DNA of 64,000 bases from Marsupella aquatica (GCA_973895155.1 OZ316893.1:992860-1056859); one strand, 5' to 3'; shown: positions 30,109 to 57,461, counted from the first letter of the stretch. Translations and numbers: made by a program. Notes: generated by a model from the letters alone, not told the origin.

Positions 30109-33100
30109 TCACCAGTAATCACCACAAGAACACACTCCATCTTTAAAATGGTGGAACCGATTTGCATCCCTCGCAATAATCTCGCGTCCGGTCACCTTAG
30201 AGATATACTTGGTTGCTGAGTGGCAATCTGAACACACCCGAAGGTTCTTACTTATACAAATTGGTCGTCCCCAAGGTAGGTGCATAAGTCCGTAAACAAT
30301 AGCCAACTTCTCACTATGAGAGCAAAGAGCTAGCTCTTTATCCTCCTCACTGATATCATGCAACACAAGCTGGGTATCCGGAATGTAGCCTTCAGCCTTC
30401 AGTTTTTCACTCAATTTATTCAGCTCAGTATATATCGCCTCTGCTTCTGGGTGAGATGTATCCCCCACAACAAATTGATGGACCGTGTTATCAACTTCAA
30501 TCCAGCTAATCCCTGGCTCCTTCCGAACACCTCTCTCTTGCATCATAGTGCGCACAGATGACACCTTCTCCCAATTCCCAGCTGCAGCATAGATATTGGA
30601 GAGCAGCACGTATGTAGAGGCCTTACCGGGTTCCAACTTGAACAGCTCGTTAGCGGCCAGTTCCCCCAGCTCCACGTTACCGTAAGTTCTACAAGCCCCA
30701 AGCAAGGCTGTCCAAGTTACATCATTTGGTTCGATCGGCATCTTACTGATGAACTGCTTTGCTTCCTCCAAGTGTCCCGCCCGCCCAAGAATATCCACCA
30801 TGAGGTTATAGTGCACAACAGTACGCTCGATACCATAGTCTTGCGTCATAGCTGAAAAGATTCTACGGCCATCATCAACAAGGCCTCCATGAGAACAGGC
30901 TGACAACACAGCTATGAATGACGTCTCGATGGGCTTCACATGGTTTACATTCATTTGTCTGAAAAGTTCCAGGGCTTCACGCCCATATCCGTGTTGTGCA
31001 AGTCCACCGATCATTGTGTTCCATGTGATTACATCGCGCTTCCCGAGTCTGTCAAAAACTTGTTGGGCGTCATCTATACTGCCACTTTTTGCATACATGT
31101 GAACGAGTGCATTGCCTACATGCAAATCCGACTCCAGTCCGGCTCTGCTAGCGTGGCCATGAACCTCCTTCACCCACTCCAAAGCCCCCGCACTTCCAGG
31201 TGCATTCAGAATACTCGCATAAGTGACTGCATTTGGTTCAAAGCCTTCCCGTCTCATTTGGAGAAACAATCGATATGCTTCATGCCCCAATCCATGTTGT
31301 GCAAGTCCTCCTATCATTACATTCCAAGTGACTACATCACGTTTCTCCATTCTGTCAAAAACCAGTCGGGCATCGTCTATACTGCCACTCTTTGCATACA
31401 TGTGAACGAGTGCAATGCCCACACGCAAATCCGACTCCAGTCCGGCTTCGCTAGCATGGCCATGAACCTCCTTCACCCACTCCAAAGCCCCCTCACTTGC
31501 AGATGCATTCAGAATACTCGCATAAGTGTATGCATCCGGTTCGAAGCCTTCCCGTCTCATTTCAAGAAACGTTCGATATGCTTCATGCCCACATCCATGT
31601 TGTGCAAGTCCCCCAATCATGGTATTCCATGTGACAACATCACGTTTCTCCAGTCTGTCGAAAACCAGTCGGGCATCATCTATACTGCCACTCTTTGTAT
31701 ACATGTGAACGAGTGAACTGCCCACCCGCAAATCCGACTCCAGTCCAGCTTTGCTAGCGTGGCCATGAACCTCCTTCACCCACTCCAAAGCCCCCATACT
31801 TGCAGATGCATTCAGGATGCTCACATAAGTGATTTCATTTGGTTCGAGGCCTTGGCGTCTCATTTCAACAAACATTCGATATGCTTCATGCCCACGTCCA
31901 TGTTGTGCAAGTCCTCCTATCATTACATTCCATGTGATTACATCGCGTTTCTCCATTCTGTCGAAAACCAGTCGGGCATCATCTATACTGCCACTCTTTG
32001 CATACATGTGAACGAGTGCAATGCCCACACGCAAATCCGAATCCCATCCGGCTTTGCTAGCATGGCCATGAACCTCCTTCACCCATTCCAAAGCCCCCGC
32101 ACTTGCAGATGCATTCAGAATACTCACATAAGTGAATGCATCTGGTTCGAAGCCTTCCCGTCTCATTTGGAGAAACACTCGATATGCTTCATGCCCACAT
32201 CCATGTTGTGCAAGTCCCCCAATCATGGTATTCCAAATGACAACATCACGTTTCTCCAGTCTGTCGAAAACCAGTCGGGCATCATCTATACTGCCACTCT
32301 TTGCATACATGTGAACGAGTGCAATGCCCACATGCAAATCCGACTCCAGTCCGGCTTTGCTAGCATGGCCATGAACCTCCTTCACCCATTCCAAAGCCCC
32401 CGCACTTGCAGATGCATTCAGAATACTCGCATAAGTGAATGTGTCTGGTTTGAAGCCTTCCCGTCTCATTTGAAGAAACACTCGATATGCTTCATGCCCA
32501 CATCCATGTTGGGCAAGTCCCCCAATCATGGTATTCCAGGTGACAACATCACGTTTCTCCAGTTGGTTGAAAACCAGTCGGGCATCATCTATACTGCCAC
32601 TCTTTGTATACATGTGAACGAGTGCACTGCCCACACGCAAATCCGACTCCAGTCCGGCTTTGCTAGCGTGGCCATGAACCTCCTTTACCCACTCCAAAGC
32701 CCCCGTACTTGCAGATGCATTCAGGATGCTCACATAAGTGATTTCATTTGGTTCGAAGCCTTGGCGTCTCATTTCAAGAAACATTCGATATGCTTCATGC
32801 CCAGATCCATGTTGTGCAAGTCCTCCTATCATTACATTCCATGTGACTCTATCGCGTTTCTCCATTCTGTCGAAAACCAGACGGGCATCATCTAGACTGC
32901 CACTCTTTGCATACATGTGAACGAGTGCATTGCCCACACGCAAATTCGACTCGAGTCCGGCTTTGCTAGCGTGGCCATGAACCTTCTTCACCCACTCCAA
33001 AGCCCCCGCACTTGCAGATGCATTTAGGATGCTCAGATAAGTGATTGCATCTGGTTTGAAGCCTTCCCTTCTCATTTGGACGAATAGTCCATATGCTTCC

Positions 33101-33885
33101 ACACCATCACCACGTTCTGCACATGCTCCAATCACAACATTCCATGTAATGACATTTCGATTGGTCAACTTTTCAAAAACTTTCCTTGCCTCGGTGATGC
33201 ACCCACATTTAGAGTACATCAGTACGAGAGCAGTCCCTACACGCACGTCCGATTCAAATCCGACCTGTCGAATATGCTCATGAATTTCTTTTCCGCATGC
33301 TAGAGCTAATGGGCTGGCACATCCTTTTAGGATGCTCAGATACGTGATCTCATTCGGCTGCACACCTTCTTGGCGCATTAGATTGAAAAGTTCGAGTGCA
33401 CATTCAGCATGATCACTGCTAGCGTATCCTGCAATCATGCTGGTCCAAGTAATAACACTCTTCTTCTCAATTTGATCAAAAACTCTACGTGCATCCGATA
33501 ATCCTCCGCATTTGATATACACATTCAACAGCGTGCTTACCACATATGGATTATTATCAATTCCACTCTCGATGATGCAACCATGAATTTGCTTGGCTGC
33601 TGAAAGATCTTTCTGATGCAAGAGCATTTGCAGAACTTTAACATAGGTGTACGAGTCTATAGCAATGCCTCGTTGTAGACGATCTTTCAAATCAGCAAGT
33701 ATTTCACTCGTGGTACCAGGAGCATGCATATGCCTACTGCCGTTCCGTTCTGCGGTGACTTGAGACCAATCTCTCGTGCAATGATCAACATCAGGTTGAA
33801 CTCTGCATTGAGTAAGCAAATTCGCCCTTGCCTTAACCCGTGCTGCAGTTGACCATCCATCCACCCAAAGTGCTATACTTGTCAT
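30109..33885 (-). CDS. PLS-class PPR-DYW protein (copy 3, 1258 aa)
   Basis: Intact intronless ORF. Seven ALEWVK-containing 101-aa units, KEPGISWIE, HSEKLA/CSDCH and terminal DYW. Confidence 0.95.
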   Translation of the reverse strand: MTSIALWVDGWSTAARVKARANLLTQCRVQPDVDHCTRDWSQVTAERNGSRHMHAPGTTSEILADLKDRLQRGIAIDSYTYVKVLQMLLHQKDLSAAKQIHGCIIESGIDNNPYVVSTLLNVYIKCGGLSDARRVFDQIEKKSVITWTSMIAGYASSDHAECALELFNLMRQEGVQPNEITYLSILKGCASPLALACGKEIHEHIRQVGFESDVRVGTALVLMYSKCGCITEARKVFEKLTNRNVITWNVVIGACAERGDGVEAYGLFVQMRREGFKPDAITYLSILNASASAGALEWVKKVHGHASKAGLESNLRVGNALVHMYAKSGSLDDARLVFDRMEKRDRVTWNVMIGGLAQHGSGHEAYRMFLEMRRQGFEPNEITYVSILNASASTGALEWVKEVHGHASKAGLESDLRVGSALVHMYTKSGSIDDARLVFNQLEKRDVVTWNTMIGGLAQHGCGHEAYRVFLQMRREGFKPDTFTYASILNASASAGALEWVKEVHGHASKAGLESDLHVGIALVHMYAKSGSIDDARLVFDRLEKRDVVIWNTMIGGLAQHGCGHEAYRVFLQMRREGFEPDAFTYVSILNASASAGALEWVKEVHGHASKAGWDSDLRVGIALVHMYAKSGSIDDARLVFDRMEKRDVITWNVMIGGLAQHGRGHEAYRMFVEMRRQGLEPNEITYVSILNASASMGALEWVKEVHGHASKAGLESDLRVGSSLVHMYTKSGSIDDARLVFDRLEKRDVVTWNTMIGGLAQHGCGHEAYRTFLEMRREGFEPDAYTYASILNASASEGALEWVKEVHGHASEAGLESDLRVGIALVHMYAKSGSIDDARLVFDRMEKRDVVTWNVMIGGLAQHGLGHEAYRLFLQMRREGFEPNAVTYASILNAPGSAGALEWVKEVHGHASRAGLESDLHVGNALVHMYAKSGSIDDAQQVFDRLGKRDVITWNTMIGGLAQHGYGREALELFRQMNVNHVKPIETSFIAVLSACSHGGLVDDGRRIFSAMTQDYGIERTVVHYNLMVDILGRAGHLEEAKQFISKMPIEPNDVTWTALLGACRTYGNVELGELAANELFKLEPGKASTYVLLSNIYAAAGNWEKVSSVRTMMQERGVRKEPGISWIEVDNTVHQFVVGDTSHPEAEAIYTELNKLSEKLKAEGYIPDTQLVLHDISEEDKELALCSHSEKLAIVYGLMHLPWGRPICISKNLRVCSDCHSATKYISKVTGREIIARDANRFHHFKDGVCSCGDYW

Positions 33886-37840: not shown

Positions 37841-40462
37841 CAGTCACAATAGTTAAACCTAACACCTATCAATCTCTACTCACTTGAACTATCACAAAGT
37901 CATGCCTCTCTGGGCCAGACACAAGTTTAATTAGTGATTCCTCTAGCTTTCCCCAACTCTTTAAAAAAAACCTCACCTATTTGGTTCAGTTGGGAGAAAA
38001 TGAAAAACTTTTTGTACACGGATAAGGTTGATTTGGGCTTCAACTTAGTCCCCCCATATATAATTATTAAAGGCAGAATTAATGGAGATTAATTAATTGC
38101 TACAAGGAATTTTCTTCATTTTACAAATTTGCAAGTCTCTAGTGGGACCTGTAAATATTCAAATAACATATTGAAAAATAAAATGAGGATTAAATCCATG
38201 TATTAGAAAATCAGGGTTCATTGGAAGAAATTGATAAACTTAAAATCTTACCAGTAATAAATAACCGACAGAAGGTAGAGTCGAGGTCTAGGATTCTAAA
38301 GTAAAGGTCCTAGACTCGGACTCTAGGGGCTTGCCACAACTTATGTGGATTCAACCAAAGACTGGAATGATGTTATGTATATATGATAAAATCATATCAT
38401 GCATGATTTGTCATCTGTATTAACATTCAAAGAATTGGCATCCAGGCTTGTAATTAAAAAACTTTATTATATACACAGTACTACCTAGAGCAGATTTATT
38501 AACACAACAATCTATAGCAAGTAATTCAATGACTTAGAGTGCCCATTGGTTATGTAAGTTTGATGTTATTTAACAAGTTAGAGCAAAATTGCATATTGAA
38601 ATAAGTTTGACTAATATGAAGAGGAGAGGAAAGAAAGAGTAGATTATTGATATATGATAGTAGCTACGTACTGTAGTCCAACACAACATTCAGACCCTTG
38701 GTACTCCTATGTACATACAGTTCATGTAACATTTTGCCTTGTCTCAAACACAAATAGTCATGTTTGGTTCTTTGTAGATCTAACAAACTGTTCTTGTTTG
38801 TGACCAGTAGCGGGACCAGTAGTGCTGATGTGACAACACGTGCTTCCATAGATTTTGAAAGGTCTGGAACTTTCCATCGGGTCCGTAAATAAGACAATAT
38901 AGCAAGAAGGGGTCCAGTCCTGCCACATGATCAATCTGGAAAATCCTTCAATAAGCAAAAAAATTCCAAAAATGCACAAACAAAATTCTGACAGTTGATC
39001 GAGGTTGTTTTCTAAAGTGGAGCCAGTTACTCTAAGGTGGGAGTAGTATGAGAGCAGGAGAGAAGTTGCTAAAAGACTTTTCTTACTATAAGCCTGTCTA
39101 AAAGACACAGCCCAGTGCCCTACTACACTTGCATTGCACTGAAGATATCAAATTGAGGCAAGGAAATACGAGTGCGATATATAGATTTTGAAATGCAGGT
39201 AGGAAAAGGAAATGTAAGTCAACAAAACCCTAAACAAAAGTTCTCCTTCCATGTTGTAGCACAATTTTTCTTTTATCTTCTTGTTCCCCTCCCTGCGCCC
39301 TCCCTTTCTCTCCTTTTGCTCTAGCTGGCTCCCTCCCACCTCCACTTTCTCCACTTTCTAGCCCTCCCCCCCCCAACCTGGCCTTTTCTTCCCTCCAACA
39401 TGATTTGAAGAATTAGTTCGTGGACCCCTTGGCTAATAAAATCAGGGGGAAGAGTTGATCTGAGCCGTCTCCATTTCTTATCTCCGGAAATCTCGTCCGT
39501 CCATCATAATGGCCAATCTATGGCTCAAAAGAAAGATCTCAAATAGATCTATGGATGGTTCTGTCAATTTTGCAAATGGGTTAATATTTTTCAAATGAAA
39601 AATTAAACAAATCCAAGCCTTCCTAGCCGTCAATTTTGTTGATTTTACGATCTTTGCCGTCCATTTTGTAATGCCTCTAGGAATCTTATTCATCCATGTT
39701 AGAAGGCAATCTAGGGTGCAATTAAAAGAAAGATCTCAATGAGATCTACGACTGGGTATTTTTTGTTTTGAGAATGAGTGAATAGTTTTGAGTATAAAAT
39801 TCGATGAACTTTCAAGATTCCAACCATTCCTCCTCCCCGATCCTGGGTTTCTATGTGCTCTTCCCAGCATTAATGGCCGTACAATACGAGAGGTCCTCAC
39901 ATAACGGGAGTTTCGGTTTAACAAGGAAGTTATAAAGTTAGTTATTAGTCATTATTTATTATATGAAAAATACTTTTTATAAATCTTTGAATTTAAGTTT
40001 TAAAATTATCACAGTATTCATTAAAACTGGAAATTTAAAAGTCCAGATTGTGATCCTCAAATTTACATTCTTGTCTCTAAAAAGTCCATTAATTTTTCTC
40101 CAAATAAACAATTTTTCAAGACTAAATATACACTCTTTTTGGTTTAAAATTACACTTTTGCACTCCAAATTTGATTTTAATCAATTAATCATAATACAGA
40201 AATTATTAATATTAATTGTATTTGAAATTAAATAGATAACTGACAAACATGTATCATTTGGTCAAAAACTCATGATTAAATTCAAAGTGAGATTAATCAT
40301 CTCATTTATCATAACATATATTCAAGGTTGGCTAGCCATAATGTCGATCCTACTCCAATGGTCAAGCTAGTGTAAAGTCCAAAGTAGTTCTATGACCTGT
40401 GAAATAGAAAAATGATTGCATGACTCCAATCTTGTGTCCTACAATGTACAGAAACATAATGA

Positions 40463-43400
40463 TTAATCATCTAAAATTTCAAATTCTATGCCTCCATGAA
40501 TATGTCTACATGACTGATTTGAACAAGTGAGTCGCTCTCCATTTGGGTCATATAGTCTGTCACGAGTGCAAGTGTCTTTGGGATAACGGTTTTTAAACTT
40601 AGAGGTGAGATCCCTAGTCTTTAGAACTTCCCAGACAAATCGGCGAGGATTTTCTCTGAAGGGACCTGCATAAGACTCGCCCAAACAGTTGTTGACCACA
40701 TCTTTCATATCATCTTCGGTCAGGTTCTCAAATGTAGGGTAGGATTGTACCATATCCCTCACTTCCCAACATATCTCATCTCCAGTGACATCCAAGATGG
40801 TATACTCAATCTTGGAACGCCAAATCTTACTTCCCCACTTATGGGAAAGTAAATCATAGATTGCAGCATTACTTTCACGGTCATCATTTATATTAACAAA
40901 TGACCAAAGTGGATTGTTGACAGATATATATTGTCGGATGTCATAAGCCTTCCACAATTTTCTAAGGAATGGCCAAAGTATCTCTGGTAGAAAAGTGTCA
41001 CTCTCGGCAATGTGTGAGAAGGGAGTTGGGAACAAACCACTATACTGTGGATTTGCAAAAGCCTTCACTGGAGAGTCATCAATAAGTAGAGTGTTTGTAT
41101 CATCATACTTGTCTCCAAAACGACTCCACACCACACGCAAATCCTTCAACATAATATTTGCTTTCCCATCTGCTACGTCCGGTCTTTTTATGCCAGTATC
41201 AAAAGCATCTTCTTGTGTGAAAACAAATTTAAATTGCCTCCGCTCCTCTTCTTTGAAAATCAAATTCATCATTTCATTAGTTCTTGGCCTCCCCGCACAA
41301 GTCCACAATGCGACATCAAAACCTTTGAAAGCCACCTCCAAAAATTGGTGCAACCTTGGCCTTTCCACGTACATGAAATTGAATCCACCCCGTCTCCCCC
41401 AATGCACACCCCGCACAGTTGTTGTAGATCTTAACGGTCCCGAGCTTTTTGTTTTGACGCAATCCCAACAAATTTTGTTCAGGTCCAAAATCAAGAGTTT
41501 TCTTCTTATATCAGAGTGCAATTTAGGAGTGAAATCTGCAAAGATCCAAATGAATCAAAATTATATCTAAAAGATATAAAAGAAGAACTTAGGGTCGAAC
41601 CTGGATCGACCCGACCTAATGGGGAAAACAAACATATCATTTTTGAATGTCAAAGCATTTTGATATATCAATGTAGAAGTACCTTGCTCAAATGCTTTGT
41701 CTTGGACCAGGGTACCGCTTGCTGAAGGTAGACCAATAATATCCTTCGATGGAAGAGATGCTATGACAAAACTCTGGTCTGTCCATATATGATTTCCAAA
41801 CATAATATTTTAGATTATTGTGAAAAATAGAAGAACGAAACCATAATATTAACCTCCACTACTAAATGACCCATATTCATCTATCATGTTATCACCTAGA
41901 TCACTTTGGATATCAGAATTGACGCCAACAGGAAGCTGCTCCACCAACGTTGGCGGCGCAAACACTGGACTCAATCTCAATTTGTCTATTATGTAATCAG
42001 GTTTGACCATTAACTTAGGCGCATCCTCCAACGTTTCTTTCAATCCAACTTTAGGTCCATTTCTCCAAATGAAATGAGTTGCATGACGGACTGTCTTCAT
42101 ATATCCTGTTCTACCTATCTCAGATCCAGACTTTTGAGACAAGCGTAATATTATGGGGCTTCCGCTTGACATCCTTGTGAAGACCAATTTATTCCCTGAC
42201 GAACAAAATTGAGGAGACTCGGAACAAGTTGAAGCACCTGCCTCTTCAGCTTCAACATTTGTTGTCTCTCCAAGTGGAAGGTTGTCTTCAATCGCTTCTG
42301 CAATACCAACTTGTAGGTCCGTGGTGGGTGTAGTGGCCCCAATATTCTGCCAACCTGCATCCAATGTGCACGATACCTGCGGTCTCTCGGGATGCAATTT
42401 TGATACTTCAGGGTTGAGAGGATTTGATGGAGGGTCGCTCTCAGGGCGACCCGACATCACTATGTCGAGTTGAGGTAGCCCTTCAACACCGTAGGTAGTA
42501 ATGCCAACCATTTCTGTTGCTCGAGCATCCCAATTTCCGCCAAAATCCTCCTCTACCATAGGACTTGAACCTCCATCATCATGCTGCAACTCACCATCCT
42601 CAAGGTCAACTCGCTGAGGGCCCGGTTGGGGGTTGTCCATAGGCCCGCAAAGAACACTTAGATGAGCTCTCCTAGGACCATGTACTCCCATCCGCTCTTT
42701 CATAAGGGAGGGAATCCTGTTGCACAAAACCCTTGCATATGCTTGGGTGAAATGGTGTTCTTGCAAAGTGTCTGAATAGACAAAACAATCTCGGTATGCC
42801 AACAAGGCCACCTTCAAAACCTGCCCTCCTGAAAAAAAATCGAGGACAGTCTCCCCCTCACCGGAAAAACATTCAATAATATTTTTGAGCATGTGTCGGG
42901 GCTTGGCATGCGGATTGACAAATCTTCCTCGACTTCCGACCATCTCAAACATTGGAGCTTGCCGCAATAAATCTGCCATATCAAATGCGGGAGACTGCTC
43001 CTCTGTCTCATTCTCTTTTCCCTTGCTTTTCTCTTGCTTGTCAGCCTTCACTTCAATATTGAAATCACAGTCAACATCGGGGTGAAAACTAAATTTTGAA
43101 TTGAACTCTGGCTTAAACAATTGATTCCAATCAAAATTGTCTTCACCTGTAATTCCAGCAAAAATGACCTGCTCAATCGCTCCTGTAAAAATTAAGCCCT
43201 GCGGATTTGGGCGATCTTCCCGATCATAACTCCCGTATTCAACATGGATGGCCAAATGCTTTTCATGTCCTAATTTCCTTAGGGCACTTAAGATGTTGGC
43301 TGGAAGTGGCCCTGGATGAGTAGTCATGACAACACAATGGTTGTATTCCTTGGCAACTCCACAATATATTGGAGCAATACAAAAATTTCCGAATCTGTCC

Positions 43401-46400
43401 ATTCATGTTGTCGTGCCCTACTAAAATCAACAATTGCAAGTGGACACATTGGCGTCGCCTCTTCCAATAACTCTGGCGTGGTTGTCTTCATTAGATTCTC
43501 ACTGAAGAACGTCAAGAAAGGCTCTGTTCATGTGCGCCCAACTCCACCAAATTGTTTGTAGTACAACCCGTCTAATCTCACCATTAGACTTTGAGGGAAA
43601 GCCTCTTTCACAATGTTCTTCCTTAATAAACTGCTAAGGTAGACCTCCCCAGCTGCTCTTCGCAATTTTGTCAGCTCAAGTTGAGATCCCAAGGCCGGCA
43701 TGATGTTGACCACCGAAGCCCACGATGTCCCCCCGGGAAAATTCTCCTTGTGCTTCTCAACAAAGTACTCAACAATGACTTGCTTCAATTTAGTCATTAC
43801 CTTGATGGTATGAGCCATATCTGGCATTGACACTAGATCCATCTTGTTGGAGGCATCTTTCTTGAGAAGTGCTTTCTTCTCATAAACCGCGGTCAATATA
43901 TCAATGATATCCTTAGAACTGATCTCCCCTTCAAAACATCTAAAAAGAGTTGGCGTGACCAGCTTTAGTGGCCGCGGCCCACCATACTCTCCTGCCCCGC
44001 CAGGGAGCTTCCCTGCCAACCAATCCCAACAAACAGTTTGCCATAAATGGAAAAGCTTATCCTCAGCAAAGAGCAACCAAAAAATGGCTTTCAAGCTCGA
44101 CTTTCCCATTGTTATCTTTGCGAGGGCAAACCAATCCTGCATTTACATTCATCCACCAAAAAACATGTTAGATGTTTAAACTTAGAAACTTCAACTTCTC
44201 TGCCTCGCCCCTAGAGCGAGGCGAAGAAAATGACAAAGCCATATGAAAATGGTTGGGGCAATCATTGTATTCATCATTCAATTTCATTTGGGTCACTCTA
44301 AGAGCGAGGCAAAATTAAACTACAGTTCCAACTAATGAAAATGTTTACCTGGTATTTCTGGTTGTCTGTACTTTGGTTTGTTCCAATTTCTGGACGCGGT
44401 GGTTTCCCACATTCATCAAATTGCCTTCTCGCATGAACAACTGTCTCTAGAAAACAAGACTTAAACTGCATGGTCTGATTTACTGCATTTGAAAGGCTCG
44501 AGTGCTCGACCAAAATTGCCCTTGGAGTGAGGTCTGATAAGATCCTCGCTTTCCGATATTGGAGTTTGCTAGCAAGATCAGTTAGCTTGGCATCCTTGTC
44601 TGCCCACCCTTGAATCCATTGTGCAGCCTTTGCGGAATGTTGCCCACTGATTGCAAGAAATTGTATCTCTTGCTTCTTAACACCAAACAAAAATTGCTTC
44701 CGATCGCGTGCGGTATTGTCAAAATGTAACAACTGCTTAGTGCGCTCTAGAAATGGAATCAAATCTGCAACATGTGGTTCCTGGCCAGGGTTTTTCATCA
44801 TTGATTTTGCTATCTCTAAGGCATGAGCCTGGTTGAACATCCGATACACAAAAACTGCAGTAGGCGGAATAATACTTTTAACCGGGATTTCAAAAACCTC
44901 CCTGATTCCAAAAGTGTAGTATTGCTCGATGTTCCGCAAAGCTTTCTGCCCCTCCAATACATCTCGTTCCTCTGGTGCATCTGTTGGGCATGTATCATCC
45001 TCCGGATCCAAGACCAACCTTGCTTTTGACGCTGACACGGGCTTTGATTTCCCAATCTTGGCCTTCTTCTTGGGCTTCTTGTCGGAGTCCTTATCTTTCT
45101 TCTTCAACGCCGCCTTTTTTCCTCTAGTACTTCCTTCACTCCTTGGCTCTCTTTGTTTTCTCTTCTTCTGTGTTTCAGCCGACGTCATTTCTTTGGCCTT
45201 CATCTTCATCTTCCCCTTACCTCGATGCTTTTCTTCCTTCTTCTTTTGAGTTGAAATCCACTTCATGCAAGCATCTTCGTCAAACTCATCAGAGAAAATA
45301 AAACTCTTATCAATTGCTTGCTCATATGAAAAGCGTGCTGTTTCAATCATCCTCTGGACAACCCATGTGTTAGGAAGATCTATAAGGTCCGGATGATCAT
45401 GCATGTACCGCTTCACAGAGAGGAATCCAAAGACAACATCAACCCCACTCAATTTGAATCTTCCATGCCTCTCAAGAACATCCTCTGCAGTGAACCCATC
45501 TGGAAGAAATCCCATTGAACAAATACTAGCCTCCGAGCGTGCTATCCACTCCACGTTGATAATTGACGAGTACATCTTGATTGGCAAGTAAAGTCTCATC
45601 CACTGAGATCTTTCTCTGGATTCAATAATGATTGTAACATTGCGGTTATCACTGCAATTTACAAGGACCACAGGGCCCAACGCAACTATCTTCTTGTCGT
45701 TCATTGTCTTAGCAGTGATTGCCTTGATACAAATCATCGACAAGTCATTCTCCATGATCCCTACTTCAAGTGCCCACGAAAATCCTGCCTTATCTTGTCC
45801 AGGGAAAATAAAGTCCTTGACATCCTCGGCCATAATATTTAACTCTGGGGATCCAAGTTGTTCTCCTGGAAAAACAAATTGAAACGACAAACATTAAAGC
45901 AAGAGATCTTTTGTGTTGCCTTGCCCCTAGAGCGAGCTGGAGACAAGGTCTGCATCAACAAACATGTGGGTTGGGTCGCTCCTGGAGCGACCCTAGGAAA
46001 TCTTAAATCAAGGTCCAACCAACAACAAATTTGGGTCGCTCCTGGAGCGACCCTAGGAAAACTTAAATCAAGGTCCAACCGACAAATAAGTTGGGTCGCT
46101 CCAAGAGCGACCCTAGGAAAACTTAAATCAAGGTCCAACCAACAACAAAGTTGGGTCGCTCCTGGAGCGACCCTAGGAAAACTTAAATCAACGTCCAACC
46201 AACAACAAAGTTGGGTCGCTCCTGGAGCGACCCTAGGAAAACTTAAATCAACGTCCAACCAACAACAAAGTTGGGTCGCTCCTGGAGCGACCCTAGGAAA
46301 ACTTAAATCAACATCCAACCAATAACAACGACAAATCTTAGGCAAGATAGGGTCGCTCTAAGAGCGACCCTTCAAAGACTAACTTGCATCAATTGTTGAA

Positions 46401-46579
46401 TCATACTTACGTGGAACTGTGATATGAAATCCTCTTGAGGCGGCCAAAGCGGATTCCACCGACATCTTTAGTAAAGTGTCTTGAGAATCATACTCAAAGA
46501 TTTTACTAGAATCAAAGTTCAGGGACTGCCCAGAACTAGAAGTGCTAGTAGAATCATCAGAACTAGAGGAAGTAGCCAT
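40463..46579 (-). pseudogene. 5-exon ~1,720-codon fusion gene: ParB-like domain, amino-methyltransferase-like domain, FCP1/SCP(NIF) HAD phosphatase-like domain, Cys/His tail
   Basis: Exons 46579-46384, 45865-44349, 44136-41854, 41778-41683, 41535-40463 join by GT-AG introns in matching phases (1,0,1,1). Motifs: IPVKSI..RMFNQAHALEIAKSM..FLAISGQHSAKA (ParB-like); NPHAKPRHMLKNIIECFSGEGETVLDFFSGG (MTase motif X/I); KLLILDLN..RPRLHQFL..VALWT..NTLLIDDSPVKA (NIF). One TGA at 43528-43530 and one frameshift near 43350. Confidence 0.78.
45971..46371. repeat. 6 x 60-bp tandem array, each unit with palindrome GGGTCGCTCC-T-GGAGCGACCC, plus a 7th palindrome at 46349-46371
   Basis: Units start at 45971, 46031, 46091, 46151, 46211 and 46271. 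The third has the variant CGCTCCAAGAGCG. The array lies entirely within predicted intron 45866-46383. Confidence 0.95.
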
Positions 46580-47626
46580 TGAAAAATGCCTCACAAACGT
46601 TTAGATGACACGTGGCAGCCTAGTATACAAGAACGCCTATATAGCTAGACCACACCACGGAGCGAGGCTACAGAGCAAGGAAAAAAATCTACTATGAGCA
46701 AGGCAAAATCAACAGAGCGAGGCAAGAAAATCTACTATGAGCGAGGCAAGAGGGAGGAGGGAAACCAGGGCAGCCGGGCAAGAAGACAATGAAGGAGGAG
46801 ATGGATGCAAGAAGACAATGAGGCAAATGAGGTAATGTCTTTGCCTTTTGCCTTCCTATACCCTCACTGCCACGGCCGATCCTACGCCACGGCCGATCGT
46901 ACGCGACCTTACGCAACCCAGCCACTTGCTCCCTTCCACGCGCCTGTGAACTCGCAACCCTCATAATGACCTAGCTGTACGGGTATCCATAGATTTTGAA
47001 AAATGATGCACGGTCGTACGGGTGTCCACAGAATGCCGATCAGAGTAATCAGACTTTCGGCCTCTCGATGTTGTGAACCCCTTCAGGACAAACTTGGCTA
47101 AAGCTTGCTCACAAATGGTATAAAGCTCTATAGTTCCAATCATTTCTCTCTTTTGTATGGCGCGTGCGTTTCTGGTCATTGCTCACTCTCGGTCTCGCCC
47201 TTCGGCCCTTGTCTATCTTGCTTCTGTTCGGTGACTGATTCGACTGACTTGGACATTTATGGTTACAAGAGTTCGTGCAAGGAAAGTCCTGTTTCAAGTA
47301 CATATTGCATTAGTTTTGGTGTCCTTGGTTGGCGACACGTCTTCTATAGTCCTTAAGAGAGGTATTACTTCATCTACCATTCTCTTAATTTCTTCTCTAT
47401 GATATCCACCAAATATTTGGCCCTAGCTTTATCTTAATATATGGACCTAACTAAGCCCTAGATAATGTAGGGTTCCTAACGACACACTCGTCTACCCACA
47501 CGTCTACACACTTCAATGGTCTAATTCAGCTTAATCATTCCCCTGATTTATTCATTTCCATATTTTCTCTTTTCCTTCACAATTCTTGCTTCTCCAGGAT
47601 TGTGCTCGTCTTTTCTTGCTCTCCCG

Positions 47627-48056
47627 TTGCCTCGCTCCAAGAGCGTCATGCCCTTGCCTCGCTCCAAGAGCGTCACACACTTACCTTTCATCAGGAGCAT
47701 CCTGCCCTTTCTTTTCTCCAAGGGCATCCGCTCTCCATTTCCTCGCCATCAGAGCGTCCCACAACCGCCTCGCCCCTAGAGCGACCCTCCATCGCCTAGC
47801 CCCTAGAGTGGCCCTCATTCACCTTGCCCCTAGAGTGTCTCTCCATCGCCTCGCCCCTAGAGCGACCCTCATTCACCTTGCCCCTAGAGCGTCCCTCCAT
47901 CGCCTCGCCTCTAGAGCGACCCTCCATCTCCTCGCCCCTAGAGCGACCCTCCATCGCCTGCCCCTAGAGCGACCCTCCATCGCCTCGCCCCTAGAGCGTC
48001 CCTCAATCGCCTCGCCCCTAGAGCGTCGCAACCTTGCCTCGCTCCAAGAGCGTCCT
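47627..48056. repeat. ~27-bp tandem array (cgcctcgcccctagagcgaccctccat and variants)
   Basis: About 11 consecutive units at 47766-48030, plus CGCTCCAAGAGCG copies at ~47632, ~47660 and ~48040. Located upstream of the transposase ATG. Confidence 0.92.
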
Positions 48057-48234
48057 TGACCTTAGAATCCTGTTGTGTAAAGCCAATACACATAAACTCC
48101 CAAATATTTTTTTCCTTTAAATAGAATTCAAATGTTTAGATCTAATATTGTAATATCTAGAGTAGTGCTTATCAGTATGCACATCAGCTGAACAATTTTT
48201 AAATGTTTTTGGATGCAGAGATTCTTTCGCTACC

Positions 48235-51200
48235 ATGAGTAAATTTATGCGAGGGGATGAAGTTTCATTGATAATTGATGGTTTTGAAGTGGCAATTGGG
48301 ACCATCCAAAAGGTTGATCCCAAAGACACTATACACAATATTTGTCTTGGGAAAAATTGAATTGGGGTCCTTATCGAGAGGTGTCTTGAAACATCTTGTC
48401 CACTACCATTTCCATCCAAAACATCATCGAGCCTAGGTGATGCAGTTGACTCGTGTGTGATCTGGGATTCTTCCTTGGCATATTTGAGGTCTTCAACATT
48501 GCCGAAAAGAACCGCTGTGGATGGTGTTCCTACTCCAGTGGACGGGGATGAAGGATGTTTCGAAATGGATGTTGGTGGTAAAGGAGGCAACCTTGCTGAA
48601 GGAGAGGAGGTTGAGATGTTCATTTTAGATGAACTTGTATCAAAAGGAGTTGTCTTCAATACCAATCCAATGGACACTTGTCATAGTGAACGACTCGGTG
48701 TTGGTCGTGTCAGTATACAAATATCAGAGGTTGTTCAGGGAAATAGAAAACTACCATATCCGCATCTTGGAGCTGACACAGTGCAAGAGGCAATGCAGAC
48801 TTGGGTAATGTGGGATGTTGCTGATGTTTCAAGAAAAGGCTCTATTCGAGGTTCTGGCATGTTTGTTGGTGCAAACCCGGGTGCAAACCTGTTTAAGGAT
48901 CTTCCATTGAAAGATTTTACAATGCGTTCCAACTGGATGGCAGAGGAAGTTGACTTGTATGATGTTTCTCGTTGTCGTAAGGTTGCGACAGGAGTTATCA
49001 CAGTTCCTTTTGAAGCAGGTGCTGTTGATGATGAACTTCTTGGTCCAGAGCATGTGGGTGTAGCTGTTGTGAATATCAACGATCCCGCATTATTTCCAAA
49101 TATCCGTGCTGGTACTCCAGGTTTGGTGAGGTGGGAAATCAAATCTTTGTTGTTGATTTCATCTCAAATATTTCTCGGGGATATCCTTGAGAAAGGTTCA
49201 CATGTGTGGATAGAATCGGGTCGAAATGAGAGCGACCCGGATTTGGATGGTGATGGGAAACCTCCAAAAAGACCTTATAATTTCATTAGAAGGACCAAAG
49301 TGGATCTGGAGGAGAAAAAAAATAAAATTTGCAATCAAGGGCGCTTTTGAAAATCACCGAGGAGTCCATTGATTCCATCCAAAGAGAAGGTTGTTGCAGG
49401 TTAAAGTGTTGCTTGAACATGCCAAGAGAGGACTTGGAGGCAATGAGGAGGGAATTTCATGGAATGTCAAGTGACAACAAAACAAGTCATATCTTCAATC
49501 TTTTTGGGTGTAGAGAAGACCAAGTCAAGAGAAAAGGATTTTTTGTTCTAAAGGGACGTGTGGTTTGTAAGGATGCGTTCATAAAAATGCATGGGTTTAG
49601 TACGGCAAAGTATTATGATTACAAAAATCAGTACGAAGCTGGGTGCACAATTGGTTTCCATGGAAATCAAGGGCAACATAAGACACGATCAAGCACCTTG
49701 CATGCTCGTGCATTGTTGGAGTCCATTTTAATCCAAAATGGAGAACCAATGCCACATCTTCCCTATGGTGGGTCCAACGGCACCGATACTGTCAAATATC
49801 GACTCCCATCATGTTTCACTAAGAAGGAGATTTTTCAAGAGGTATTTGCAAAGATGGAATTGGACGGCTATGCTAAGGTTACTGAAGTTACCATGTACAA
49901 CATCTGGAAAAATTCTTTTGATAATTTTGACTTTCACAAGGGCAGTGCATTTGCCAAGTGCACATTTTGCACTGAGTTCAAAGATCAATTGATGCGGGAG
50001 AAGAGAAAAAAAGAGCGTGCAGAGATTGAAGAGAAAAGAGCACGACATCTTCGTGAACAAATGTCAAGGAGATATGTTTACTATGCTCATAGGGTTCTTG
50101 CAAAGAAGGATCCTCAAAACTATCTTTGCATTATTCATGATAAGATGGACCAAGCCAAGACTTGGATCCCCAGATTGGTCCCCACTCCAAAATCTCTCTC
50201 TGGTAGTGGTCAACCTCTGCCCATTGCCCTTACTGGGATGTTAACCCATGGAAGGGATCCAGGAGTGTATGCACACTTTAGTTTGACTGGCCTTTGGCCT
50301 GGAGATGCAGACTTCACTGTGACATCTTTGGCCAAATGCCTTCAAGATTTGGAGGATTACACTGGAGACAAAACGGGAGACATGCTTGAAGCTTTCAATT
50401 GGAACGCAACTAGGCCAATATTTCAGTCTCTTTTGGACTTTGAAGCATTTCAAGCGGGTTACTTGGAACCCAAAAATGTTTCAATTCTCAAGTTTCAAGG
50501 CCTTGATGACGGTCAGGAGAGCCAAAAAACCAGCACAACAGATGCTGGTTCTAGAGTTGATCCTGAGACTACGAGCTCTTTCAAGCCCTTACCAAGGCAC
50601 CTAACACTGCAGATGGACAATTCAGGAAAAGATAATAAAAATCAATATGTGATGGCATTTTGCAGCGAGCTTGTTAGCAGGGGGTGTTTGAAACTGTGCA
50701 AATGTCATTCCTCATAGTTGGCCACACCCATGAGGATGTGGATGCACTATTTCTCAAGTATCCAAACAGGTCAGGTACAAAGAGGTTGCTACCCTCCTTG
50801 CGTTGATGGCTGAGGTTTGGGAGTGTGAAAGCATCCATCCTGTACGTACCACGATTGATTCAGGAGGTTGCATCTTACAAGCACTATTTGAAGGCTTTCC
50901 AAGTGAAAGAGATTGAAGGTCACTCAAAACCAATGGCATTTCTATTCTCCATGAGGGATAATGTGCCAGTGTATCAATATAAAGCACATGTCAAACAACC
51001 TTGGCTTCCAGCAACAGGGAGGTCAATTTGGAGAACTGATCTCATCACAAACACGCTCATTTTACCGGAGGGCCAACCATTTGCAAAACCTATATCGGGG
51101 GAGGTACAAAAGAAAGTCGAGGAAATCATCCCATTCCTTAATCGTTACATTGATTTCTTGAGGAAAAGTTGCAAGGATGAGACCTCTACAGCATACCGCG

Positions 51201-52018
51201 AGAGATTTCCTTTGGTGAAATATTGGGAGAGGCTTGTTATGGCACTCTCTGAGGCACTTACAATAGAAGGGGAGGGAGAAAGACAATTGTCATTGACAAC
51301 TGATTTCTGGCCAAAGACTAACCATGGCACAGGTTACAAGGTGATTTTGGGGACCTCTCAACCTTCAAGTGAACCTACTCAAAATTCAGAGATGATGGAC
51401 CTTCAAAATGAGTACATGGAAGAGATGGAAGGTCAAGCTGCACCCTTCGTTGGTGCACAAGAAGAGCGAGAACTTGCACGTTGGATTTCCCTACAAGATA
51501 TTCAAGAGGGTCACTTTGTGTTTTTACGTCCAGAGGATGAATGGGAGCAAAAAAATGGCAAAGGGCGTTTCTGGTTAGTTCGAGCTTTGGGTGGTGTGGA
51601 TCCAAACCATGAGGTTTCTTCACTAGATTTGCAATTTAGTGAAGGGTCTTCTTCAAGGTTTTCTAAGAGCATTCACCTAAGTAGCATTCCTAAGTGGTAT
51701 GCTCCTATGTTCCAAGTGCAATGGTGGAGGCCTAAACATGGTAAGCATGATGCAAAGGATGATGTTCGATACGAACGTTGCTTTCAGACCACTAAGACTT
51801 GGGAGCTAGATCCTGGGTTTAACACTATCACTCAAAGTTGGCAATTTGCAAATTCTGCAATGTATGGATTTAAGTCAGGTGCCAAAGAACAAAATATTAT
51901 GGATAGAGGTTTGACAATTCCCAAGAATGTTTTGAAAACTCTCAAAACTTACATGGAAGGTATTGATGAGAGTGATAGAGTGGTCACAAGTGTCCACTAT
52001 GTAATGACTTGTAGGTAG
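48235..52018 (+). pseudogene. DDE transposase (Sola/DUF7869-like) with three N-terminal Tnp1/En-Spm-like domains; disrupted
   Basis: ATG 48235 is in frame with ORF 48457-49350, with a TGA at 48358. Cys clusters CCRLKCC, VCKDAF and KCTFC. Catalytic-type motifs IIHDKMDQ, LQMDNSGKDNKN and (frameshifted, ~50700-50750) SFLIVGHTHEDVDALF. Frameshifts at ~49330, ~50680, ~50752 and ~50845. Confidence 0.8.
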
Positions 52019-52697
52019 GAGGGTCAAGTTAATTTCCATGCATTTGTCTAAAGTAAGTGAGAGAACAAGGCTTGCAATCAAATACTCTATGATCTTTCTT
52101 AGTTATTGAATGGACTTTTTCATAAAAATTGTTATTTTTGTCTTAGTACATATATTTCTAGAAAATGATGGCAGTTCTAAGTTACTTGGATGTCATCCTA
52201 GTTTGAATATAAGATATTTAACTTGTCTAGCATTTCATTGTTGCTTAGATAATGATCCTATCCAAGCTAGATGCTTTGAGTATAGATGCTATCCAAGCTT
52301 ATGTGTTATTACACACGTTCTATCTATTTTCAACCAAATGAACACTTTTTATCACCCAAATGTTTTTTAATATTATCCAAATTAATATTTTCTTTGCCCA
52401 AATGTCTATTTTTTTGCCCCAAATTTATAATTCATGATGCTTAAATTTTCATTTTTCATCCTTCAAATTTACAATTCTTATGCCTAAAAGTGTGTTTTTA
52501 AATGCCCAAATTTCCAAATCTTCTTTATAATTCCACTTTTAATGAATATAGTGATAATTGGAAATGTAACTAAAACGGTTACATATAGTGATAGTTTTAA
52601 CCGTCTTGCTCTTTGCATTTCCAATGTTTTTACTTTTATTTTTATGGCACAGCGTCCCAAAGTTTACACCCAAATTGACACAAACACGAATATCAAT

Positions 52698-53028
52698 CTA
52701 TTCATTAAAAGTGAATTATTATTCAATTTGTGAACATTTGGGCAATAGAAAGTGTACATTTGGCTTTCAAAAAGTAAACATTTGGGCAAGAAATAAAGGT
52801 GATGGCCATCAGACATACCACCATGTTCATCTTTTATAAATGAACTAGGATGAGACTCCTTCTAGTAAAGATCATTTTTTCTCTCTCAAGTTTACAATTG
52901 ACTATTTAGGTGTAGAGTATTGTACTATAATATACCTTTTGGGGTTAAAAAGTGTACATTTAGAGACCAAAAAGTGTACATTTCAAGGCCTAAAAGTGAA
53001 CAAAATAAAATACACTTTTAATGAATAG
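52698..53028. mobile_element. MITE with 16-bp TIR CTATTCATTAAAAGTG (copy 1)
   Basis: Perfect inverted ends. A second homologous copy lies at 62932-63240. Confidence 0.8.
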
Positions 53029-53313
53029 GGTGATGAATGGAAACTATAAGTTTGATTCACAAAACCGCCGAGTCTTGTTTGTTGCGGTTGTTGTTGACGT
53101 GGCACGTTGTGGTGCCAGGAATTTTGGAAGGGACCTCTAGTGGGGTCCGTAAAAAAAATTGGAGGAAAAAGCAGAATTAATAACCCAAAGGAACAAGAGA
53201 ATTCCACTTTAGAAAATAAATAGCAAACTTAGGCCAAATAGTGCCCCCCCAACAAAAAAAAAGTCTCTAACTTACACGATGTACTTCTTATGTAGGGGCT
53301 CCAAGTATTGGTC

Positions 53314-53651
53314 TGTTAGATATTGCTCTAGTCTTGTGACTCATCATGAGCTAACCACAGTTATTCTAACTCGGGTTAGGACTTAGCTAATATTAGTGGT
53401 AGTGTTGTTGTGCATATAGCCAGGGCTGATGCTAGACCCTAGGTGGAACTTAGGCTCATTGTTACAGAGCTAGTTGAGAGCTTGTGTTGTGGATACTTGG
53501 TATGGCCGGTCGGCCTAGAGTGCAGTAAAGCTCTTGTGTGTTCCCGTGGACGTAGCCTCATGTGGAGGTGAATCACGTATCTCTCTGTGTCGACTCTTGT
53601 GCGTTGGATGGTTCATGGGCTTGCAGTTACGAATGTCGTCTATGCTCAACA
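53314..53651 (+). mobile_element. Copia solo LTR with 5-bp TSD TGGTC
   Basis: TGTT...AACA ends, TGGTC at 53309-53313 and 53652-53656, and a 3' half highly similar to LTR 2699-3043. Confidence 0.92.
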
Positions 53652-54257
53652 TGGTCATGGTAAAATGAAACTCAGCCCAATCCTAGATTACAACGAGGAT
53701 TACAATCTTGAAAAGCCAGCAAGTCATTTAGTGCATAATTATTGTCTTCAAAAGACAAATATATGAACCAAAAAGTCAGTGCCTGAATTTCAATTAAAGT
53801 TGAAGTGAATCGGTTGCACATGACTTTTTTGTATGAGCCAGTTGCATGTGACTTTTTGCATTTTACACTGTTAATTGTAATTAGTGTTATATAAGAATTA
53901 GCGTTAGTACCAAATTAGTGTTGCTAAAACTAATTTTGTTATATATAATTAAGTGATCTTGAGCCCAGAGTAACCTTAATTCTTCTTGGTTTTCAAAACA
54001 GGTTTTTTTTTCACTTTTGTTTGTGGGGGGGGAGGGTTGGGGGAGAGGCAGCCCAAGAGAAAGGGGGAGAGGAGGTCGCATTGTGTGAATGATTGCGCTT
54101 ACCTCGGTTGCCATCACCTATTAATCTTGCGTTCTCCATCTGTCATCATTTTTGCAACAAAATCTTTTTGACACGTATATCTTTTATGCAACATCTTATG
54201 TGCAAGGCATGAGTATATATTGAACACAACCACAACATGGTTGAGATCACACATAAC

Positions 54258-56156: not shown

Positions 56157-57461
56157 CTACCTGGCAATGCTTTTCAACACCAATACTTCGACTGTCACAC
56201 CAGGCCCGAATGCCACACAAATTCCCCACTCAGCTCCTTGCCCAGATGTCGTCGAGTTGTTCTGAACAGACAGGTTCCGCACTTGGTCAAGCACAAACAG
56301 AACAGTGGCACCAGACATGTTACCATAGTTATAAAGCACATCCCTGGTGGCCTTCAGCTTCTCGGGCTTCAAACTTAGTGACTTCTCCATTTCATCGAGG
56401 ATGGCCCGACCTCCGGGGTGTACTGCCCAGAAGATGTCGTTCCAGCCAGGAGACCCGGTCATTTGAGATTGAGCAGCATTGAAGATGGGCAGCGTATTCT
56501 TTGAAATGATGCCGGGAACTTCCTTCACTAAATGATACATGAGGCCAGCTTCTGTGAGGCGCCCTTTGATTGCACCATCACTTTCGGGAAGGATAGTTTC
56601 TCCTGACCAGTGGATTTCGTAGAGTGGCCTCTCGACCTCGAGCGGGTCCGAGCCGATGACTAGTGCTGAGGATCCGTCGCCAAACGTTGCAGACCCAACC
56701 AAGTTGTCCACATGCTGCTCAGTAGGGGCCCTAAAGGTGAGACACGTCGTGAGTTCACTCACCACCGTCAGAACTCGTGCGCCCTTGTTATTCTCAGCCA
56801 AATCTTTAGCTACTCGCAGAACTGTGGCTCCTCCGAAGCACCCTTGCTGATACAGCATAGTTCGCTTGACATTGGGATTCAACCCAAGGAGTCTGGTGAG
56901 AGTGAGATCTGCTCCAGGCATGTTGACACCACTGGTAGCTGCCAATACAACGTGAGTAATCTGCTCTCTGGGTTGGCCCCATTCTTCGAGAGCCTCCTCC
57001 GCTGCCTTTGCTGCAAGCCTGGGTACCTCTTTAATGGCAATGTCCTGGCGAACGTCGAGGGTATCACAATTTAGAATCATTTCTCTCACCTCAATAGATA
57101 GAAGACTCAAAAACGTTGTTCGAGTGATTTCACACATTTGAAATCTAGGAGATAACAAAGATTGAAAATTAAGAGCCATGAAGTACACCTGGCGAACATC
57201 GAGAGAAGCATCCTTGTACGTACACATCGCTGGATTGGCCTTCAGCACCTCCTCGGTGCAATGAAAGTACCTCTGGTTGATCCCTGCGTTTTTGCAGATA
57301 CGGGCGAACTTCGCCTTGAGCGCAGTCTTCTCATTGCAATTCGTGATGTTGAAGAAGAAATCCGCGTACTCGCTCTGAGGATGAGCGGTGGGAGGAACAG
57401 CTTTGCCAATGGCGAACACGGTGGCCGGCCCTTCCGCTCTCTGATGCCGATACGCAGCCAT
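56157..57461 (-). CDS. Type III polyketide synthase, chalcone synthase family; 2 exons (57461-57189, 57044-56157)
   Basis: RAEGPATV, catalytic triad contexts MLYQQGCFGG / WAVHPGG / YGNMS, FGDG and AFGPG. A 144-bp GT-AG intron spans 57188-57045. Confidence 0.93.
   Translation of the reverse strand: MAAYRHQRAEGPATVFAIGKAVPPTAHPQSEYADFFFNITNCNEKTALKAKFARICKNAGINQRYFHCTEEVLKANPAMCTYKDASLDVRQVYFMALNFQSLLSPRFQMCEITRTTFLSLLSIEVREMILNCDTLDVRQDIAIKEVPRLAAKAAEEALEEWGQPREQITHVVLAATSGVNMPGADLTLTRLLGLNPNVKRTMLYQQGCFGGATVLRVAKDLAENNKGARVLTVVSELTTCLTFRAPTEQHVDNLVGSATFGDGSSALVIGSDPLEVERPLYEIHWSGETILPESDGAIKGRLTEAGLMYHLVKEVPGIISKNTLPIFNAAQSQMTGSPGWNDIFWAVHPGGRAILDEMEKSLSLKPEKLKATRDVLYNYGNMSGATVLFVLDQVRNLSVQNNSTTSGQGAEWGICVAFGPGVTVEVLVLKSIAR

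Follow-up and report, generated by a model that had tools for sequence, protein, structure and literature searches.

The beta-class N6-adenine and N4-cytosine methyltransferases of bacteria and phages (M.RsrI, CcrM, M.PvuII and M.MboIIA among them) have in common a circular order in which the motif IV strand comes first and the cofactor loop last. A bacterial-type domain of this class is also present in eukaryotes, namely in DN4MT1 of the liverwort Marchantia, a beta-class N4-methylcytosine (4mC) enzyme (10.1101/2021.02.12.428880, in the part available to us), and in N4CMT of bdelloid rotifers. Both proteins have a working SPPY motif and methylate DNA, and the change of SPPY to APPA destroys the activity of N4CMT, as stated in the available part of PMC8885841. 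Bacterial-type amino-methyltransferases are believed to be scarce in land plants; inactive methyltransferase domains are also on record, in a mobile element (the DIRS1 retrotransposon) and in METTL14, an inactive partner (PMC4738411, available portion). The present study concerns a 64,000-nucleotide stretch of Marsupella aquatica DNA (GCA_973895155.1, OZ316893.1:992860-1056859), referred to as the window, and within it a 12,548-bp DNA transposon with an accessory gene whose protein contains a domain predicted to have the beta-class fold. The catalytic Pro-Pro-aromatic loop is replaced in this domain and in its aligned relatives, and the domain may well be a non-catalytic DNA- or chromatin-binding module rather than a DNA methyltransferase.

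With the bacterial and phage enzymes the domain shares its predicted fold and circular order (structural Z scores of 15-17), as well as the recognisably homologous stretch xxKP...S..GdtVLDFF.G. It differs from them in that its family is without (D/N/S)PP(Y/F/W), has a glycine loop of the form F-S-G-G-x and, in the window, scores below the Pfam gathering threshold; furthermore, the domain lies here within a eukaryotic, intron-containing protein of approximately 1,270 residues that is borne on a transposon. The occurrence of a bacterial-type beta-class domain in a eukaryote is what it has in common with DN4MT1 and N4CMT, whereas the SPPY motif of those enzymes is absent from all of the relatives found here, and N4CMT (Z 14.3-14.5) is no closer to the family than are the bacterial enzymes. 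METTL14, ciliate MTA9, DNMT3L and the DIRS1 domain offer a parallel of a different kind, as in them, too, the fold is kept and catalytic or cofactor motifs are lost. Unlike those proteins, however, the present family is of the beta class (PF01555) and not MT-A70 or PCIF1-like, it is carried by a DNA transposon, and no active partner is known.

As regards its place in the element, the gene may be compared with those for the second-ORF (open reading frame) accessory proteins of plant DNA transposons, such as TnpA/TNP1 of CACTA elements and the Myb-like protein of PIF/Harbinger elements. There, too, a second gene is divergent from the transposase, is present in autonomous copies and is situated beside internal repeat arrays, but the proteins have no sequence relationship to the family, and we know of no CACTA or PIF/Harbinger element with a set of methyltransferase-like and NIF-like domains such as that described below.

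A predicted beta-class domain with an altered motif IV

A series of ORFs spans positions 45890-40463 on the minus strand of the window. The methyltransferase-like domain (42700-43515, minus strand) was identified by means of Pfam, a family profile, the AlphaFold2 model of a homologue, Foldseek and VIA-align, and its characteristic motifs are divided between two ORFs. A 63-codon ORF (43515-43324, minus) carries CPLAIVDFSRA, and a 517-codon ORF in a different frame (43402-41849, minus) contains HAKP and VLDFFSGGQVL. Within LAIVDFSRA (43440-43414, minus), the residues DFSR (43417-43428, minus) fall at the predicted position of motif IV, where DPPY or SPPY would be expected. The motif I-like stretch VLDFFSGGQVL (42815-42847, minus) replaces DPFxGSG, and HAKP (42910-42899, minus) is N-terminal to it. 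Motif IV precedes motif I, which is the beta-class order; the two are in separate frames in the window, with a 1-base deletion near 43333 between them.

The 517-codon ORF matches PF01555 (N6_N4_Mtase) over profile positions 160-205 of 221 with an E value of 2.1e-5, and its score of 25.0 bits is just short of the gathering score of 26.7. The first five homologues gave the same match at 19.6-24.7 bits, all below threshold, and in these proteins as in the window ORF it is confined to the motif-I half of the profile, i.e. the C-terminal half. Twelve of the 18 long family members gave a PF01555 match, and only P0007 (29.2 bits) and P0029 (26.7 bits) reached the threshold. The family profile picked up M.RsrI in the PDB (E 2.9e-5), with FFSGGQV of the family aligned over FFAGSGV of RsrI, so that Gln takes the place of the second FxGxG glycine. 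Across the family the glycine loop reads F-S-G-G-(Q/V/S/I), as against the canonical F-x-G-x-G(-T-T).

The AlphaFold2 model was made for homologue P0002, which is 43% identical to the window ORF, from an alignment of 96 rows. Its predicted local distance difference test (pLDDT) values exceed 85 across most of residues 20-270. A Foldseek comparison with the PDB gave beta-class amino-methyltransferases as the best matches, with E values from 5e-8 to 1e-6. The matches comprised CcrM, TTHA0409, M.RsrI, M.PvuII, M.MboIIA, rotifer N4CMT, M1.HpyAVI and M.BceJIV, followed by METTL14 chains; MTA9-type chains were likewise among them. When residues 1-270 of the model were aligned with VIA-align, the highest Z score was that for CcrM (17.3, with a root mean square deviation of 3.7 over 209 aligned residues), RsrI and PvuII gave approximately 15.6 and 15.2, respectively, and the MT-A70 family gave approximately 11. 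In the model, the first core strand (E26-30) ends at the Asp of DFxR, and this is the place of motif IV in the fold. The domain is thus predicted, from the model of a homologue, to have a beta-class amino-methyltransferase fold.

Distribution of the family and conservation of the odd motif

Five homologues came from the first homology search, among them one of the liverwort Calypogeia fissa. A six-sequence profile was then searched against 1.84 billion representatives (at 50% identity), and it returned 127 proteins at E ≤ 1e-3, 69 of them at E ≤ 1e-10. Canonical methylases, with DPPF or DPPY and DPFxGSGTT, enter the results from E 3.9e-6 only, and over the motif-I region only. Thirty representatives were looked up, and 12 of these had an organism name. 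All 12 were from liverworts, 11 from Riccia sorocarpa and one from Calypogeia fissa; additional Calypogeia entries were obtained in other homology searches. A metagenome scan for linked loci returned one locus of 1.8 kb, which gave no further information.

Motif occurrences were counted in 130 proteins, i.e. the 127 profile hits together with P0001, P0002 and P0005. The pattern [DNS]PP[YFWH] was present in two of these, P0097 and P0129, which are canonical outliers. Among the 33 aligned family members that cover the site, none has (D/N/S)PP(Y/F/W). Instead, 30 of 33 members have Asp in the motif IV column of the profile alignment; the next residue is Phe or Leu in 31 of 33, and the residue two positions further on is Arg in 25 of 33 (His in four and Lys in two). 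It is apparent that the family has D-[F/L]-x-[R/H/K] at the position where amino-methyltransferases need (D/N/S)PP(Y/F/W). Other positions are also kept, including Trp39 (26/32), Gly94 (39/39), Trp129 (34/35), the Lys of AKP (67/68) and, in the D-F-F-S-G-G loop, the Asp (62/69) and the two glycines (61 and 62 of 68). At the position aligned to the ribose-binding acid after strand 2, Ser or Thr predominates in the family. The members compared share 17-30% identity, and conservation at such distances argues for a selected function. On the aligned sequences, therefore, the odd motif is a trait of the family and not the product of decay.

These results bear on an earlier, sequence-only reading of the locus, which had proposed a methyltransferase fold with a non-canonical catalytic motif. 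The motifs that it quoted (HAKP, VLDFFSGG and LAIVDFSRA) are present on the minus strand in beta-class order. The Rossmann methyltransferase fold, on which that reading was to stand or fall, is supported by the AlphaFold2 model, by Foldseek and by VIA-align Z scores of 14-17. The non-canonical nature of motif IV also holds: it is DFSR in the window, and the homologue alignment supplied no member with a DPPY- or SPPY-like motif. Beyond what that reading could show are the split of the two motifs between frames by the 1-base deletion, an in-frame TGA at 43530-43528 and the conservation of the altered motif across the family.

The accessory gene in the window and in public sequencing runs

The gene that encodes the domain has two exons and about 1,270 codons. 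Exon 1 (44349-45890, minus) was recognised as an ORF with homology to the N-termini of P0133, P0055, P0109 and others, and to P0165-P0176. From its N-terminus, the encoded product has a beta-rich region and a second domain with an invariant SGQHS (44651-44634), both conserved, with a lysine-rich linker between them. It is followed by a 212-nt GT..AG intron (44137-44348, minus), predicted from the sequence and from the alignment of homologues; the resulting junction, ...KYQ|DWFALAKIT..., is gap-free in comparison with P0133 and with the Calypogeia gene models P0167 and P0175. Exon 2 (41849-44136, minus), which is broken in the window copy, was mapped by tblastn of P0133, P0006, P0002 and P0009 and by the homologue alignment, and its product comprises a helical domain, the methyltransferase-like domain, a disordered region and, at the C-terminus, a small beta domain that is conserved. 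The last of these (41861-42220, minus; approximately residues 455-510 of P0002) has the pattern GKTGY...HY.Y.WG.KKG and a pLDDT above 90 in the model. With the long homologues, tblastn resolves the gene into three segments, 44984-44328, 44136-43312 and 43345-41861, each in its own frame. Of the two changes of frame, the first is attributed to the predicted intron (44348-44137) and the second to the 1-base deletion near 43333. In the first homologues, the two window ORFs and an upstream ORF of 204 codons form a single continuous protein.

Contigs of public runs X1-X5, from coded organisms A and B, were compared with the window region. Two lesions distinguish the window copy. An in-frame TGA (43528-43530, minus) occupies a codon that is Arg in homologues and CGA in the runs; at 43530, where the window has A, G accounts for the full depth in X1 (309.4/309.4), X2 (469/469) and X3 (1391/1391). 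The second lesion is the 1-base deletion (43333-43334, minus), a frameshift, behind which the runs have one extra base. This base is T in X1 (depth 309.4/324.2), X2 (449.1/685) and X5 (5.6/5.6), and one X2 contig has A. When the 19 substitutions and one insertion of X1 were applied, the exons became open frames of 514 and 762 codons, a total of 1,276, with IVDFSR, HAKP and LDFFSGGQ unaltered. The majority sequence in the runs is free of both lesions and reads open. At 11 of the 19 X1 substitution sites, a T or A in the window stands against a C or G in the runs. No difference from the window was seen in the flanking single-copy contigs of organism A (694, 462, 508 and 350 bases compared). On the simplest view the family is young and the window copy has decayed slightly; an assembly error could also have given rise to the two lesions.

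Directly downstream of the methyltransferase-like domain's gene is an ORF with a NIF/FCP1-like, phosphatase-like domain (40463-41535, minus), possibly a third exon. It passes the PF03031 threshold comfortably (E 9e-16; 58.4 bits against 21.8). The NIF/FCP1/SCP phosphatases have a DxDx(T/V) signature, from which the ORF differs: the window reads DLNK at this site (within 41494-41474), and the three Riccia relatives that cover it, P0074, P0112 and P0092, read DVEG or DTEE. A non-catalytic member of this phosphatase family is TIM50. In three Riccia proteins (P0045, P0065 and P0074), NIF-like and methyltransferase-like domains homologous to those of the window are fused. The window ORF has no ATG near its start, and a candidate GT..AG intron (41853-41536) would join it in frame just ahead of the exon 2 stop codon; such a splice would fuse the NIF-like ORF to the methyltransferase-like protein.

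The exon 1 domain that contains SGQHS was also considered as a ParB-like domain, on the cue of 'IPV..I..P...YR' and 'SGQHS', as in bacterial fusions of ParB with a methylase. This assignment was not confirmed by Pfam, the PDB or homology searches: no Pfam match was found at E values up to 10, a single sequence and two profiles found no ParB in the PDB, and the last homology search gave family members only. The AlphaFold2 model of the domain was poor (pLDDT 39.6). A phage search for ParB-methylase fusions returned plain methylases only, among the 30 matches listed. The region (approximately residues 300-520, with an invariant F.A(I/V)SGQHS) has clusters of fungal DUF3723 as its nearest Atlas neighbours (0.94, with 168-169 shared features), and the sole ParB signal appears at Atlas rank 28 (score 0.91), in a cluster with PF02195 (ParB_N) in 35% of its members. 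DUF3723 is described as a conserved cargo gene of the Starship giant transposons in the available part of 10.1101/2021.12.13.472469; Pfam and PDB profile searches did not confirm a relationship between DUF3723 and the exon 1 domain.

The transposon and its surroundings

The gene sits in a multi-copy, cut-and-paste DNA transposon. The whole element (40008-52555; 12,548 bp) was delimited by joints in the runs and by its termini. Contigs join position 40003 to 52556, with 12,552 bases skipped and an overlap of 4 bases, in four of four runs (three contigs in X1, two in X2, four in X3 and one in X4); the shorter sides of these contigs are just 20-30 bases, and the joints were accordingly flagged as weak. 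Contigs of X1 and X4 end exactly at 52555. A 4-bp target-site duplication, AATT, flanks the element (40004-40007 on the left and 52556-52559 on the right). The left terminal inverted repeat, ATCACAGTATTCATTAAAACTGGAA (40008-40032, plus), matches the reverse complement of the right one (52531-52555, minus) at 22 of 25 bases, and the inverted-repeat ends read ATCAC...TATTCATTAAAA. The transposon-borne setting that the sequence-only reading had supposed is thereby upheld, by inverted repeats, target duplication and element-spanning contig joints alike. A non-autonomous relative of 343 bp (52692-53034), a miniature inverted-repeat transposable element (MITE), has the same termini and a 4-bp GAAT duplication, and it is skipped by contigs in runs X1-X4, with a joint from 52687 to 53035.

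Contig depth in the element is roughly 10-50 times that of unique flank contigs in all four runs, depth being distinct here from copy number. The values for element and flank, respectively, were approximately 282-349 and 15-21 in X1, 383-670 and 7-16 in X2, and 1118-2216 and 88-118 in X4. The element family is most simply regarded as young. The DNA on either side (39034-40003 and 52556-53985) belongs to another very high-copy repeat, within which the element is inserted, and the summed contig depths of that repeat are tens to hundreds of times those of neighbouring unique sequence. The contigs that join across the element thus probably derive from other, uninterrupted copies of this surrounding repeat and not from alleles of the locus.

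The second of the two divergent genes (48244-51889, plus) is a DUF7869 transposase-like gene, recognised by PF25273 (E 1.3e-15), a tblastn map and its Atlas neighbours. It lies in three frames in the window (48244-49335, 49329-50714 and 50642-51889), and the runs insert a T behind 50749 and leave a gap of 4 bases near 50841. Riccia and Calypogeia have many homologues of the gene. PF07592, the ISAzo13 DDE family, is carried by 11% of the members of one DUF7869 Atlas cluster. The Zator superfamily, eukaryotic relatives of the ISAzo13 family, makes target-site duplications of 3 bp (PMC10045372, in the part available), and it was rejected for the present element, whose duplications (AATT and GAAT) are of 4 bp.

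Between the two divergent genes are an array of 19-21-bp palindromes, GGTCGCTCnnnGAGCGACC, with a spacing of 60 bp (45972-46370), and a related array of 27-bp repeats (47602-48080). The palindrome GGTCGCTCnnnGAGCGACC has eight matches in the window, all within the element, against an expectation of 0.01. Single palindrome copies were observed at 42433-42451, 44201-44230, 44289-44318 and 49217-49238, in intron and coding sequence. The palindromes are possible protein-binding sites. The ratio of observed to expected CpG is 0.54 for the element and 0.57 for the window.

The window as a whole is plant nuclear DNA. Among its other contents are three intact, intronless PPR-DYW editing-factor genes, all inside 22 kb (12100-15090, minus; 23165-26338, plus; and 30109-33885, minus), a gene type that is not known from complex thalloid liverworts such as Marchantia. 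Should that hold, the host would be of some other lineage, even though the named relatives of the element come from liverworts. A chalcone/stilbene synthase gene is located at 56157-57491 (minus), and fragments of a copia-type retrotransposon, with RVT_2 and an integrase SH3-like domain, at 231-2125 (plus).

Discussion

The loop of motif IV is uniformly replaced in this family, with the fold and many invariant residues kept, and the domain is for that reason best read as a pseudo-enzyme retained for binding. We infer, with a confidence that stands about midway between doubt and assurance, that the methyltransferase-like domain of this large transposon accessory protein is a non-catalytic DNA- or chromatin-binding module and not a DNA N6/N4 methyltransferase. 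In the absence of the Pro-Pro-aromatic loop, by which the flipped base is held together with its amino group, the domain would be unable to methylate DNA bases, while the Asp, the Arg, the Trp, the Lys of AKP and the DFFSGG loop, all of which are kept, would preserve a pocket or a surface for binding. The NIF-like domain next to it, sometimes fused to it, has lost the second catalytic Asp, and with this domain the protein might serve the element in binding or scaffolding. It could bind the palindrome arrays or the ends of the element, or contact host chromatin or the transcription machinery.

Several considerations weigh on the other side. Conservation is strongest in the S-adenosylmethionine-binding region (AKP and DFFSGG), and this could reflect cofactor binding and catalysis. 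Both DNA binding and the link between the protein and the palindromes are inferred. The correspondence of DFxR to DPPY depends on the predicted structure of a homologue: in an hhalign comparison of the family with the canonical P0129, only the motif-I region aligned, DFxR and DPPY were not aligned by sequence, and it is for this reason that DFxR was placed at motif IV by way of the model. Moreover, the window copy is broken, and nothing acts from the window locus itself.

If the conserved loop were indeed catalytic, the protein would be an enzyme of altered chemistry or specificity, in which Asp-Phe-x-Arg would act on a differently held base or on some substrate that is not an exocyclic amino group. 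This we regard as unlikely. In its favour are the intact predicted fold and the retention, among very divergent members, of the AKP Lys (67/68), the LDFF Asp (62/69), both glycines (61/68 and 62/68) and the motif IV Asp (30/33). Yet the APPA change kills N4CMT (PMC8885841, available part), Q, V, S or I stands at the second FxGxG glycine family-wide, and the ribose-acid position is mostly Ser or Thr. We also know of no active amino-methyltransferase without a Pro-Pro-aromatic loop, and have counted this against an altered enzyme. A still smaller likelihood is assigned to the opposite extreme, in which the gene has no function and is carried as a passenger: a piece of a methyltransferase gene of horizontal origin would have been captured and would be decaying, and decay alone would account for its odd motifs. 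The nonsense codon and frameshift of the window copy, and the sub-threshold Pfam scores, fit such a history; that the same substitutions recur among members at 17-30% identity, with many columns invariant, does not, nor does the conservation of domain order, intron position and linkage to NIF, or a majority sequence that is open for 1,276 codons.

A pseudo-enzyme need not be confined to binding the element, and it is conceivable, if improbable, that the protein is a counter-silencing or decoy factor, in which the dead methyltransferase occupies the DNA or the partners of host methylation enzymes and so shields the element, and the NIF-like pseudo-phosphatase domain engages phosphorylated polymerase tails. 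Pseudo-methyltransferases often partner active ones (PMC4738411, available portion), and the fold matches include METTL14 and MTA9-type chains; liverworts do possess a beta-class 4mC enzyme (10.1101/2021.02.12.428880, in the part available). Both domains keep their folds and lose catalytic residues, and the gene moves with the element. Against this, the CpG ratio of the element equals that of the window, and so gives no sign of shielding from methylation-driven decay. A more specific proposal, to which we likewise give little credence, is that liverwort DNA transposons encode a dedicated protein of two pseudo-enzymes, a bacterial-type DNA methyltransferase shell and a polymerase-tail phosphatase shell, both catalytically dead, and that this protein recognises the palindrome arrays of its own element and either links that element to the transcription of the host or shields it from host methylation, for example by poisoning a beta-class enzyme such as DN4MT1.

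The binding module therefore remains the reading that we favour, and it corresponds to the second of two alternatives in the sequence-only reading, that of a dead domain repurposed for binding. Two other suggestions made there were not supported. No particular tie to Marchantia DN4MT1 or to rotifer N4CMT emerged from the comparisons, which covered N4CMT and the bacterial enzymes: N4CMT scores no better than the latter, and canonical methyltransferases are matched from E 3.9e-6 and in the motif-I region only. The spread of working enzymes by the element was not borne out either, (D/N/S)PP(Y/F/W) being found in none of the 33 family members that cover the site.

A dead methyltransferase fold in a mobile element is a known theme. 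The literature searched, which did not include subscription journals and supplements, yielded no description of this family or of this element, and the term 'DUF7869' appears in none of its papers. The results define a previously uncharacterised element, with its ends, target duplication, MITE relative and internal palindrome arrays, of which the majority copy appears intact. They also place beside DN4MT1, the one well-studied case, a second and unrelated-looking liverwort lineage of the beta-class fold, comprising at least 69 clusters at E ≤ 1e-10, carried on a young, multi-copy DNA transposon and uniformly without the catalytic motif. Caution is therefore warranted in annotating such genes as DNA methylases or in citing them as sources of 4mC or N6-methyladenine. 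The family would provide a natural example of a mobile element that has retained an enzyme fold for a non-enzymatic job and, should the proposal of two pseudo-enzymes in one protein prove true, an anti-silencing or targeting device of a kind undescribed for plant transposons.

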